A stretch of 64,000 nt of DNA. Origin: a candidate division FCPU426 bacterium (GTDB taxonomy: Bacteria > Oederibacteriota > Muellerivitia > Muellerivitales > Muellerivitaceae). Numbering within the stretch: the stretch's first letter is position 1; every line of letters begins with the position of its first letter. Location: positions 192,001 to 256,000 of the forward strand of contig CAWCKJ010000006.1 in assembly GCA_963796105.1 (NCBI GenBank), in the 5' to 3' direction. Of this stretch, positions 55,997 through 60,814 are shown in pieces. The translations under genes and the position numbers were made by a program. The notes below the pieces were generated by a model that was not told the DNA's origin, did not search any database, and worked only from the letters and a program-made list of their open reading frames with translations.

Positions 55997-56347
55997 ATGG
56001 AACGTTTGGTGCTTGCCACTCGAGCGGCCATGTCGAACACTTCGGTCACGGTCGTCGATATCGAGGGCGTCCTCGACATCAACACTGTCGGTGATTTCGA
56101 GGCGATCCTCCAGGATCTGTTCAAAAAGAAGCAGTATAAAATAGTCCTGAATATGAAAAAGCTGACCTATATCTCAAGCGCGGGCTTCGGGGTTCTTATG
56201 AGCATCATCAAAGATGTCCGGAAGAACCGGGGCGACATCAAGATCGCCAACGTCAACGCGGATATTTACAAGGTGTTCGACCTTCTGGAGTTACCGGGCC
56301 TTTTCCATATTCTAAAAACAGAGCAAGACGCCGTAACGGAATTTTAG
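55997..56347 (+). CDS. STAS-domain anti-sigma-factor antagonist
   Basis: IEGVLD, LTYISSAGFGVL, VFDLL; GAGGAG RBS. Confidence 0.92.
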   Translation: MERLVLATRAAMSNTSVTVVDIEGVLDINTVGDFEAILQDLFKKKQYKIVLNMKKLTYISSAGFGVLMSIIKDVRKNRGDIKIANVNADIYKVFDLLELPGLFHILKTEQDAVTEF

Positions 56348-57526: not shown

Positions 57527-57554
57527 TTGACACTCGGCTTTCACCCCATATAAT
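57527..57554 (+). promoter_or_regulatory. Consensus sigma-70 promoter upstream of glgA
   Basis: TTGACA-16 nt-TATAAT. Confidence 0.7.
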
Positions 57555-57866: not shown

Positions 57867-59381
57867 ATGGCTCGAAATAATACAACTCAAAATGGCTCTT
57901 CCGGTCAACCGGGGGCGGGACCGTTGAAAAGACGGATCCTGTTCGTTTCCTCCGAGGTGGTCCCATACGCGAAAACCGGGGGGCTCGCCGATGTGGTGGG
58001 GGCACTTCCCCTAGCCTTGGCGAAATTGGGCTGTGAGGTGGGAGTGGTGATGCCCCGCTACAAGGCGGTCACCCAGGAGAAATTCCATCTTCGAATGGAA
58101 GTGAAAGCAATGCCCGTTCCCATGGGAATGGGGGAAATGAGCGCGGACATCCTTTCAGCCCCGTTAGGAAACACGCCCAGCAAGATTTATTTCATTCAGA
58201 ATGACCGCTACTTTGACCGGGAGGGCCTGTACGGCTCTCCTGAGGGCGATTTCCAGGATAACGCCGAACGGTTCGCTTTCTTTTCCCGCGCGGTCTTGGA
58301 AATGCTCAAGTCCATCCATTGGTATCCCCACATCCTGCACTTAAACGATTGGCAGACAGGCCTCGCTGCCGCCTACTTGAAAACCCTATACGGAAACCTT
58401 CCTTATTTCGAGAGGATCCGGACCCTTTTCACCATCCACAATATGGCTTACCAGGGCTTGTTTCCAAAGTATGTGCTTCCCATGACGGGCTTGGGATGGG
58501 AGGAATTCACCCCTGAAAAGATCGAGTTTTACGGCCAGGTGAATTACCTGAAATCCGGCCTGGTTTATTCGGATGCCCTGAATACCGTCTCCGAGAAATA
58601 CGCCCAGGAGATCCAAGCCGACGAATACGGCCACGGCCTGCAGGGACTGCTCCAATCCCGCGCCGCGGACCTTTACGGGATCGTCAATGGGATCGACTAC
58701 CTGGAATGGAACCCCGCCACCGACAAGGAAATACCCTCGCAATATACGGCCAAGAATTCCAGCCTGAAAGCCGAGTCCAAGAAGAAACTCCTGAGGGAGC
58801 TGGACCTGGAATACAAAGCCGACACTCCCGTGATAGGCCTTGTCTCGCGCCTGACGGACCAGAAGGGAATGGATTTGATCGCGGACATCATCCATGAGTT
58901 CCTCTCCATGGACGTCCAATTCGTGCTGTTGGGGACCGGCGACCCGCGCTACCACGCCCTGTTCAAGGACCTTCAGGGCCGGTTCCCGAAAAACCTGGCC
59001 GCGGCCTTCCGCTTCGACAATCCCCTGGCCAAGCTCATTTACGCGGGAAGCGATATGTTTCTCATGCCATCGAGGTTCGAGCCCTGCGGATTGGGCCAGA
59101 TGATCGCCATGAAATTCGGAACCATCCCGATCGTGCGGAAGACCGGGGGGCTTTCCGACACCGTAGAGAACCTTTCCCCTGACGGCTCGAAGGGGACGGG
59201 TTTTGTTTTTGAGAATTACAAAAGCGGGGACCTGTTGGCTTCCATCAAGAGGGCAGTGGAGGCTTACCGCCAAAAACAGATTTGGCATCCCCTCATCCAG
59301 CGGGCCATGGGCCAGGACTTTTCCTGGACTGCCTCCGCTAGGAAATACGAAGAGCTTTATGAGACGATATTGAGAAAGTAA
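57867..59381 (+). CDS. glgA: Glycogen synthase
   Basis: KTGGLADV, HLNDWQ, TIHN, NGID, SRLTDQKG, PSRFEPCGL. Confidence 0.96.
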   Translation: MARNNTTQNGSSGQPGAGPLKRRILFVSSEVVPYAKTGGLADVVGALPLALAKLGCEVGVVMPRYKAVTQEKFHLRMEVKAMPVPMGMGEMSADILSAPLGNTPSKIYFIQNDRYFDREGLYGSPEGDFQDNAERFAFFSRAVLEMLKSIHWYPHILHLNDWQTGLAAAYLKTLYGNLPYFERIRTLFTIHNMAYQGLFPKYVLPMTGLGWEEFTPEKIEFYGQVNYLKSGLVYSDALNTVSEKYAQEIQADEYGHGLQGLLQSRAADLYGIVNGIDYLEWNPATDKEIPSQYTAKNSSLKAESKKKLLRELDLEYKADTPVIGLVSRLTDQKGMDLIADIIHEFLSMDVQFVLLGTGDPRYHALFKDLQGRFPKNLAAAFRFDNPLAKLIYAGSDMFLMPSRFEPCGLGQMIAMKFGTIPIVRKTGGLSDTVENLSPDGSKGTGFVFENYKSGDLLASIKRAVEAYRQKQIWHPLIQRAMGQDFSWTASARKYEELYETILRK

Positions 59382-59527
59382 TCCGCCGCCCTTCCAGTTC
59401 CCATTCCTTGAATCACCAAGGTTTTTTCCTTATTGTCCTTTTGGATGTTTTATGAAAGCTGTCGCGGGGCACACAAAGGCGGAAAATAAGGGAACTGAAT
59501 TTTTAATGAAAAACGGTTAAAGGAAAC

Positions 59528-60814
59528 ATGATTCACACTATTAAGGAATTTTTACAAAACAAAGATGACCTGCTGAGGGAGCAGTGGAACGCCTCGTCCA
59601 GGACCCTTTCGTCCCGGGTGGACCAGTTCAAACCCGACTCGCCCATTTTCCACAAGATCCGTAAGATATTGATGGACCTGGTCGACATCGTGGAAAAGAA
59701 GGGCAGCGCTGAACAGGCCGTGGACTCGGCGCTCAAACCCATCGTCTCCGAGCTCCGGAGCCTCCAGGCCGAAAATCAGTTAAATCCCACGGAAATGGTC
59801 TTTTTCCTGTTCCTCATGAGGGATATCCTCCGGGAAACCATCAAGCGGATGGGGGAGGCCTCCGCGAAAGAAGACCAGGCCAACGGGAACCAGGCCTATT
59901 CCGATGAGCTGGACCAGGTTTCCTCCCTCCTGAACCGCCTGGGCCTGGTTTTCTTCGAAAGCGCCATGCGCTTGAAGGAGGAGGATGGGTTCAACCAGGA
60001 TGTACTGGCCATCGAGTACGCCCTCCTTTACGAGAGGACCCGGCAGATCGCCATCACCGACCGCCTGACGGGCCTTTACAACTTCGGGTATTTCCTGGAG
60101 CGCTTGAAGGAGGAGAGGGTCCGCGCCGAGAGGTACCACCGGCTCCTATCCCTGATCATTTTCGATATCGACCATTTCAAGAAATACAACGACGCCAACG
60201 GCCACCCGGCAGGGAACGAGGTTTTAATAGAGATCGCCAAAATCCTCCAGGACGAGGCCCGTGAGGTGGATATCGTCGCGCGCTATGGGGGGGAGGAAAT
60301 GGTCCTGGTGCTCCCGGAAACCAGCCGCAAACGCGCCTTCGAGATGGCGGACCGGATCAGGGAAAAAATCGCGGGGACTGTCTTCCCCCATATGGAATCC
60401 CAGCCCAAAGGTCGTTTGACCGTTTCCGCAGGAGTGGCCACTTTTCCCGTGGACGCCGCCAACGAGGATGAGTTGGTCCAATCAGCCGACAGCAGCCTGT
60501 ACGAGGCCAAGTCGAAGGGGCGTAACTGCGTGGTGGCCTTTGAGCCGCCGCTCAAAGTCACCCTGATTTATAAGCCTCACCGCGAGGTTTCCAAGGTCGC
60601 CTTGGTCGGGGATTTCAACAACTGGGACAAGGATGTGGACTCGATGATCCGCCAGCCGGACGGCAGTTTCCAGTTCATCATTTCCTTGAACCGGGGAACC
60701 TACCATTACAAGTTCGTCTTGAACGACGTGGAATGGATTCCCGATCCGGCCTGTCCGGAAAGGGTTACGGATACCCTCGGGGGCGACAACAGCGTTCTTC
60801 GGGTTGGAAGTTGA
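59528..60814 (+). CDS. Diguanylate cyclase: helical RsbRD-like N-domain, GGDEF, and C-terminal CBM48/AMPK-beta-type glycogen-binding domain
   Basis: TDRLTGLYN, DIDHFKKYND..GH..GN, REVD I-site, RYGGEEM, SAG, LYEAK; VALVGDFNNW..GTYHYKFVLNDVEW..DP..NSVL. Confidence 0.92.
   Translation: MIHTIKEFLQNKDDLLREQWNASSRTLSSRVDQFKPDSPIFHKIRKILMDLVDIVEKKGSAEQAVDSALKPIVSELRSLQAENQLNPTEMVFFLFLMRDILRETIKRMGEASAKEDQANGNQAYSDELDQVSSLLNRLGLVFFESAMRLKEEDGFNQDVLAIEYALLYERTRQIAITDRLTGLYNFGYFLERLKEERVRAERYHRLLSLIIFDIDHFKKYNDANGHPAGNEVLIEIAKILQDEAREVDIVARYGGEEMVLVLPETSRKRAFEMADRIREKIAGTVFPHMESQPKGRLTVSAGVATFPVDAANEDELVQSADSSLYEAKSKGRNCVVAFEPPLKVTLIYKPHREVSKVALVGDFNNWDKDVDSMIRQPDGSFQFIISLNRGTYHYKFVLNDVEWIPDPACPERVTDTLGGDNSVLRVGS

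Follow-up and report, generated by a model that had tools for sequence, protein, structure and literature searches.

A putative glycogen-binding GGDEF protein encoded directly behind glycogen synthase in one family of FCPU426 bacteria

A GGDEF–CBM48 fusion gene follows glgA

We analysed a 64,000-nucleotide stretch (the window) of the genome of a candidate division FCPU426 bacterium (phylum Oederibacteriota, family Muellerivitaceae; contig CAWCKJ010000006.1, positions 192,001 to 256,000), in which the glycogen synthase gene glgA is followed by a gene fusing an RsbRD_N domain, a GGDEF domain and a C-terminal carbohydrate-binding module (CBM) of the type found in the β subunit of AMP-activated protein kinase (AMPK). 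Judged from sequence, the fusion protein is likely to bind glycogen through this CBM48 domain, as a putative signalling enzyme seated on the storage polymer. An earlier note, made from the letters of the DNA, had placed the gene 146 bp after glgA in the same orientation, and the gene coordinates agree (Table 1). The glgA product scores 583.7 bits against the NCBIfam profile TIGR02095 (cut-off 328.45).

A perfect sigma-70 consensus sits 312 bp 5′ of the glgA start. Among 17 relatives, 12 show the strict promoter pattern 5′ of glgA, and conservation within the 312-bp leader is confined to the promoter boxes (nine aligned stretches). This sigma-70-type promoter is likely to drive glgA and possibly the fusion gene as well; co-transcription of the two genes from it is plausible. 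The spacer between them varies in length among the 17 relatives, at about 57–262 bases between tblastn hit ends, and its hairpin is at chance level (9 terminator-like sites, compared with 6.5 ± 2.9 in shuffled sequence). Scans of the window returned no Rfam match and no tRNA. A foreign origin of the fusion gene was considered and rejected because its base composition (GC 0.566, GC at third codon positions 0.774) resembles that of the neighbouring genes (0.55–0.56 and 0.60–0.72).

Table 1 Features of the glgA locus, in window coordinates
Feature	Positions	Strand	Basis
glgA (GT5 glycogen synthase, 504 aa)	57867-59381	+	TIGR02095 over cut-off; PF08323
RsbRD_N–GGDEF–CBM48 fusion gene, 428 aa	59528-60814	+	Open reading frame and Pfam
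N-terminal all-helical, probably non-haem globin-like domain, residues 1-150	59528-59977	+	PF14361 over cut-off; fold matches
Conserved helix 156-176 into TD turn	59993-60055	+	AlphaFold2 model; linker identity
GGDEF domain, residues 175-338	60050-60541	+	Profile, fold and residue mapping
AMPK-β-type CBM48, residues 342-426	60551-60805	+	PDB matches and conservation
glgA/fusion-gene spacer, 146 bp	59382-59527	+	One weak hairpin and T run, 59406-59421
Sigma-70-type promoter consensus (TTGACA, 16 nt, TATAAT)	57527-57554	+	12/12 matches
Stand-alone STAS protein	55997-56347	+	
Metallophosphoesterase, 334 aa	56357-57361	+	
Predicted secreted protein, 429 aa	47970-49259	+	

Domain architecture of the fusion protein

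The earlier note had described a soluble protein with a helical N-domain, a GGDEF domain bearing a GGEEM motif and an RxxD inhibitory site (I-site), and a C-terminal domain reading VALVGDFNNW..YHYKFV..W..DP with the CBM48/AMPK-β fold, and each of these features was borne out. Profile searches place RsbRD_N (PF14361) at residues 5-105 (E = 5.4e-8, 33.9 bits, cut-off 24.3), GGDEF (PF00990) at 175-333 (E = 1.2e-44, 152.3 bits, cut-off 23.8) and AMPK1_CBM (PF16561) at 353-426 (E = 5.7e-10, 39.7 bits, cut-off 26.8); the CBM_48 profile itself matches weakly, below its cut-off (E = 0.012). The I-site motif REVD (245-248) lies five residues ahead of GGEEM (254-258), and the CBM motifs fall at 357-366 (VALVGDFNNW), 392-397 (YHYKFV) and W403-IPD-P407. 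No transmembrane stretch is found in the protein, whose top 19-residue Kyte–Doolittle mean is 0.94. AlphaFold2 models it with a mean predicted local distance difference test (pLDDT) of 83.6 and a predicted template modelling score of 0.62, as an all-helical N-domain, helix 156-176, the GGDEF domain and a β-rich C-domain that starts about 5 residues later.

The architecture is not a chance one, because PF00990 and PF16561 occur together in 117 of the 120 best homologues listed, a result of the domain-architecture search that the earlier note had proposed. In an ESM Atlas cluster of 81 members, every member has GGDEF and 77% have AMPK1_CBM; a phylum is recorded for 11 of the members, most commonly Planctomycetota. 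Mean identity among relatives is 70% in the GGDEF domain, 66% in the linker (151-174), 61% in the CBM and 36% in the N-domain. The organism's own genome (G000) holds no other PF16561 match and no paralogue of the N-domain. None of 4576 matching records in a plasmid collection covers 80% of the fusion protein, a metagenome scan with generic GGDEF words yielded one partial family member among 79 loci, and no listed solved structure matches both the GGDEF and the CBM domain.

The C-terminal domain is supported as an AMPK-β-type CBM48 with conserved sugar-binding residues. Its top PDB matches are the AMPK β chains 1z0n, 4y0g and 2f15 (E about 2e-6), and alignment to rat AMPK β1 equates W366 with W100, K395 with K126, W403 with W133, L417 with L146, G418 with G147 and N421 with N150. 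Conservation was counted over 122 distinct full-architecture sequences, which are kin and include some near-copies, and compared with 21 other CBM fusions or fragments and with 372 GGDEF domains without a CBM (a nearest-neighbour background). W366 is kept in 122/122, and K395, W403, G418 and N421 in 121/122 each, the sole miss being a gap; W366 and K395 are also present in all 21 other fusions or fragments, each with an aromatic residue at 403. Glycogen binding by AMPK β1 is lost in the W100G and K126Q mutants and weakened in W133L and G147R (PMC6274970). By this conservation the domain very probably binds α-glucan.

The N-domain, the most variable part of the protein, is likeliest to be a non-haem globin-like dimerisation or sensor module. 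Fold comparison used a single-sequence model (pLDDT 68.8) and gave 3zta as the best natural match (Z 9.8, root-mean-square deviation (rmsd) 3.1, 125 residues aligned), with the N-terminal domain of RsbR (2bnl) at Z 9.8, rmsd 3.7 and 123 aligned; a designed protein tops the list at Z 10.2, and Z 9.8 is middling for helical bundles. Foldseek returned nothing for this domain at E ≤ 0.001, only weak globin rows, and an Atlas search with residues 1-170 reached only 0.80. A haem sensor of the globin-coupled, DosC type was rejected because a conserved proximal His was not found: in any N-domain column, His occupies at most 12 of 34 rows. Helix 156-176, which leads into the TD turn, is predicted to form a coiled-coil signalling stalk.

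The GGDEF domain retains catalytic and inhibitory residues

The GGDEF domain matches PleD (1w25) and WspR (3bre) at Z 25–26 with rmsd 1.6–2.4. Residues were mapped through an alignment to GacA (6d9m), with numbering checked against Asn339 and Asp374 of PMC6456294 and residue roles taken from PMC12943098 and PMC7288161. The PleD residues that bind metal and phosphate or act as general base (D327, K332, N335, E370, E371, K442 and R446) all have equivalents, namely D213, K218, N221, E256, E257, K328 and R332; D213, N221, E256, E257 and K328 are kept in 122/122 sequences, and K218 and R332 in 121/122. The I-site is likewise complete, with R245 in 118/122, D248 in 121/122, and the partners equivalent to R390 and R313, R276 and R199, in 122/122 each. 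GGEE is invariant (122/122), followed by Met in 71, Leu in 41 and Phe in 10. This conservation suggests that the enzyme is very likely active.

Distribution and gene neighbourhood

Among 99 genomes of the phylum, PF16561 matches occur in 29 of 31 from the organism's family (f1, own genome included), in all members of families f3 (5/5), f14 (2/2) and f6 (1/1), and in few others. The scanned f3 and f6 matches are GGDEF–CBM fusions with a different N-domain, and the f14 sequences group with them. Further architectures are EAL...GGDEF–CBM (P0123), GAF–GGDEF–CBM (P0156) and receiver–GGDEF–CBM (P0159). In a 301-genome sample of the phylum of a Myxococcota-labelled record, the C-terminal part was matched in 14 genomes and the GGDEF fusion in one (G099) alone. 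Trees split the GGDEF–CBM fusions into three groups; independent origins were considered and convergence is not claimed, because the approximately unbiased test does not reject a single clade (p 0.54 with two of the groups joined and 0.34 with all three).

In all 17 f1 loci fetched, the fusion gene lies directly 3′ of glgA; insertions occur 5′ of glgA (L112) and 3′ of the fusion gene (L115), and none falls between the two. Across the family the fusion gene stands behind glgA in 27 of the 29 genomes with the CBM, and the other two (G016, G073) break at contig ends. Twenty-three of the 29 have glgA and the CBM on the same contig, 2.5–2.8 kb apart, and four (G005, G009, G021, G008) show the adjacency across a broken gene. 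The pair belongs to a conserved block, smc-ftsY-STAS-nucleotidase-glgA-cyclase-ileS. In a sister-family genome (G025, 97% complete), which has no AMPK1_CBM match, the block is otherwise the same and glgA lies 252 bp from ileS; the fusion gene was thus gained, or lost, exactly in the slot behind glgA. The f3 genes and one f14 gene (L121, L220, L221, L223) directly precede a gene for a Cof-like HAD hydrolase, with PF08282 confirmed for L121, and in G099 an RNase D-like gene comes next.

Two other members of the block are conserved 5′ of glgA. Sixteen family loci extend to the stand-alone STAS protein, which is 85–99% identical in 15 of them, 67% identical in the remaining one and 81% identical in G025, far above its neighbours; RsbR joins RsbRD_N to STAS, yet this STAS gene also occurs where the fusion gene is absent. 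The metallophosphoesterase resembles the N-terminal domain of 5′-nucleotidases and has a signal-like start. Elsewhere in the window, the predicted secreted protein carries many Pro/Ala-rich LPALPGQ-like repeats and has no Pfam match at E ≤ 0.1.

Glycogen metabolism and cyclic dinucleotide outputs

For glycogen turnover the genome carries a GlgB gene that scores over its cut-off, genes for three GH57 proteins and a phosphorylase, and one for a GlgX-like protein of 693 aa, whose 505.7 bits fall short of the 640.9 cut-off; with this gene content the organism should both make and break glycogen. glgA is found in 91 of the 99 phylum genomes. glgC (TIGR02091, E ≤ 1e-50) was found in none of the 99, in a search positive for 8 of 14 controls, so the sugar donor of GlgA is uncertain. 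Bacteroidetes also do without GlgC, whose allosteric regulation is the usual control point (PMC10395257), and an alternative means of monitoring glycogen is more plausible because the phylum has no recognisable glgC. A GalT-like gene (G000:C2:378236) follows a gene resembling galE by eye. Complex prediction for GlgA and the fusion protein scored 0.00, which gives no verdict and is evidence neither way.

PilZ matches in the genome number 29, nearly all of them in short stand-alone frames and some in tandem, and one gene encodes a DAC-family cyclic di-AMP (c-di-AMP) synthase. The RF01051 riboswitch was found in none of 31 family genomes and in 11 of 99 in the phylum; the own genome has none, in a search in which no control was positive. 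In f4 and f11, four loci (L304-L307) show matches to the cyclic di-GMP (c-di-GMP)-I riboswitch 4–8 kb 3′ of glgA, which are probably unrelated to glycogen because they directly precede genes that by eye resemble PilB/MshE-type ATPases. A second GGDEF enzyme, with a weak GAF match and the canonical Asp, is encoded at L214:13213-14322 (G000:C3:156212-157321), about 750 bp 3′ of a GH57–glgB pair on the same strand. Five similar 490-aa open reading frames (ORFs; G000:C1:46832, C2:191, C3:916678, C13:11413 and C16:27754) match GGDEF weakly and in split form and lack a GHxxG motif; two lie near contig ends, and they are possibly a multi-copy element.

A model for glycogen-coupled signalling, and its alternatives

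We propose that the protein would dimerise through its globin-like N-domain and the predicted stalk helix, and that both CBMs of the dimer may tether to a branched granule across the linker of about 5 residues. Tethering would alter how often the two GGDEF half-sites meet, so that a cyclic dinucleotide, most likely c-di-GMP, would be made at the glycogen granule, with product feedback through the I-site. We give a probability of about 0.52 to this reading, in which a dimeric enzyme sits on glycogen through two CBM48s and its c-di-GMP output tracks the store, capped by the I-site. That glycogen localises or regulates the enzyme in vivo is, taken by itself, probable. More glycogen giving more signal is slightly favoured as the sign of the response, because joint expression of the gene with the synthase would be expected and dimeric catalysis benefits from clustering; an inverse response, by analogy with AMPK, which glycogen inhibits in cell-free assays (PMC6274970), is nearly as likely. 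The signal is more likely to be read by general c-di-GMP receptors such as the PilZ proteins than by GlgX.

Several observations weigh against the model. Because the block is conserved as a whole, the 27 genomes are not 27 independent cases, and the glgA link amounts to one evolutionary event in one family. The glg synteny that the earlier note had suggested checking thus holds within f1 and fails beyond it: the GGDEF–CBM48 genes of f3, f6, f14 and G099 have no glgA nearby, and outside f1 glgA is either distant or on another contig. Since glgA is so widespread in the phylum, its co-occurrence with the fusion says little. A hairpin, albeit weak, lies between the two genes, and the equivalent of AMPK T148 is Gly (Gly419). 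The analogy with Streptomyces GlgX drawn by the earlier note did not carry over, as a pattern search of the GlgX-like protein found no ExR(X)6R, the c-di-GMP motif defined for the Streptomyces enzyme (PMC9530166). Finally, both guanine-specifying residues are replaced. N230 stands at the position of PleD D344, the guanine-reading Asp, which is described as essential (PMC7288161); it is Asn in 122/122 sequences and in none of the aligned E. coli K-12 GGDEF domains. F186 stands at the position of the cross-dimer Arg, PleD R300, and is Phe in 118 and Tyr in 4 of the 122.

What the earlier note called a diguanylate cyclase therefore keeps its catalytic and I-site residues, but, with Asn230 and Phe186 in place of the residues that specify guanine, its ‘diguanylate’ label is uncertain. 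The product may not be pure c-di-GMP, because the same two positions also change in the Hypr enzymes that make 3′,3′-cGAMP (cyclic GMP-AMP). Asn occupies the D344 position in 19 of the 21 other CBM fusions, the receiver-type and GAF-type fusions being the two with the canonical Asp, and in 24 of the 372 GGDEF domains without a CBM (about 6%), of which 343 have Asp. Arg occupies the R300 position in just 201 of the 372 in this nearest-neighbour background; the figure given for predicted cyclases is 94% (PMC6456294). We class the protein among GGDEF-family enzymes whose product is uncertain, neither a proven diguanylate cyclase nor a Hypr enzyme, with c-di-GMP somewhat more likely than not to be its main product.

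A glycogen-tethered enzyme might instead be promiscuous in the manner of Hypr enzymes, with Asn230 reading either purine and Phe186 stacking on either base, so that AMPK-like sensing would write the size of the store into 3′,3′-cGAMP or a mixture of cyclic dinucleotides and glycogen would gain its own messenger channel. N230 and F186 align with GacA Ser348 and Tyr304, the specificity determinants of Hypr enzymes, and GacA Tyr304Arg moves the product towards c-di-GMP (PMC6456294); in Bd0367, S214D switches the enzyme to c-di-GMP (PMC9140294). GacA (6d9m) is also, narrowly, the best PDB sequence match of the domain (E 3.2e-35 vs 3.9e-33), the fusion protein is the sole Asn-type among 13 GGDEF ORFs with a readable motif in its genome, and among GGDEF domains with an intact motif and no CBM, Phe, Tyr or Trp occupies the R300 position in 17/23 of Asn-type vs 33/327 of Asp-type. 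In a kinship-aware test, however, this Asn–aromatic coupling, strong in raw counts, had one supported pair only (p = 1). Hypr enzymes, moreover, are described as exclusively Ser or Thr with GGDE[F/Y], Ser with GGEEF being inactive (PMC6456294), and the fusion protein combines Asn with GGEE; Asn equals Asp in length, so the geometric reason for the inactivity of Ser with GGEEF should not hold here. The absence of RF01051 from the family and the genome's own c-di-AMP synthase also count against promiscuity, which we regard as unlikely. Such promiscuity, if true, would make the protein the first of a second class of promiscuous GGDEF enzymes, defined by Asn plus an aromatic residue, and would bring cGAMP or mixed signalling to a phylum without the usual GlgC control point.

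The CBM48 could alternatively sense soluble maltodextrins from glycogen turnover and act allosterically on the adjoining GGDEF domain, with no granule anchor. The short distance between the two domains fits such an arrangement, as does the lack of a glgA link among related fusions; both branched and unbranched carbohydrates are ligands of AMPK-type CBMs (PMC6274970), and the GlgX-like protein and a GH57 glucanotransferase would release dextrins. Multivalent binding to a granule is nevertheless a simpler account of dimer regulation, and the gene lies behind a synthase rather than a catabolic gene. Nor is a shape change known for CBM48 domains upon binding, and we consider a maltodextrin sensor quite improbable.

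Less probable still is a weak or dead cyclase acting as a c-di-GMP receptor, in which the I-site would bind messenger made by others and the glycogen-bound protein would adjust GlgA in place of GlgC control. Its I-site is nearly invariant while the D344, R300 and motif Phe positions are altered, several Asp-type cyclases in the genome could supply the messenger, and the usual control point appears to be missing. Metal- and phosphate-binding residues are nonetheless invariant or nearly so down to about 46% identity, as would not be expected of a dead enzyme, and many GGDEF domains that are otherwise intact share the pairing of Asn with an aromatic residue. Equally remote is a CBM48-like domain serving protein contacts or oligomerisation, with the N-domain as the real input and the place behind glgA an accidental insertion: the single event, the housekeeping character of the neighbouring genes and the binding of proteins by the AMPK CBM without glycogen (PMC6274970) would suit it, but the surface sugar-stacking residues are conserved like the core, also in the 21 other fusions, and a chance landing behind glgA among thousands of genes is unlikely.

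Relation to known systems

The predicted glycogen-tethered cyclase shares its GGDEF fold, metal ligands, stalk helix before the TD turn and RxxD I-site with R390 and R313 equivalents with the canonical cyclases PleD (1w25), WspR (3bre/3i5c), DgcR (6zxm) and DosC (4zve). Unlike them it has a C-terminal CBM48, Asn for D344, Phe for R300 and GGEEM, and its N-domain, unlike that of E. coli DosC, is non-haem with no conserved His. Its likeness to Hypr enzymes (Geobacter GacA, 6d9m; Bdellovibrio Bd0367) lies in two base-reading positions that depart from the canonical residues, an aromatic cross-dimer residue and an intact I-site (PMC6456294, PMC9140294); it differs in having Asn rather than Ser or Thr, GGEE rather than GGDE, no receiver domain and no RF01051 found in the family. 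The N-domain finds its best natural fold matches among stressosome RsbR sensor domains (2bnl; 3zta), with RsbRD_N over its cut-off and a middling Z score; here, unlike in RsbR, it is fused to GGDEF–CBM48 and not to STAS.

AMPK β (1z0n, 4y0g, 2f15) and plant LSF1 (8j5d) likewise place a non-catalytic CBM48 on a signalling enzyme, and the fusion protein's module has the equivalents of AMPK W100, K126, W133 and G147 (PMC6274970). In contrast to AMPK, the protein is bacterial, its CBM is joined to a nucleotide cyclase and not to a kinase subunit, Gly replaces T148, and binding is predicted. Full-text literature searches, whose coverage largely leaves out subscription journals, found no characterised GGDEF–CBM48 fusion, in line with the earlier note, which knew of none. 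Every part comes from a known family, and the combination appears to be uncharacterised.

As in Streptomyces GlgX (PMC9530166), c-di-GMP would be tied to glycogen metabolism; there the messenger controls a glycogen enzyme, whereas here glycogen would control the source of the messenger, the reverse arm of such control. If this reading is true, a storage polymer would be a direct input to a second-messenger synthase in these bacteria, through the module that serves AMPK in animals.

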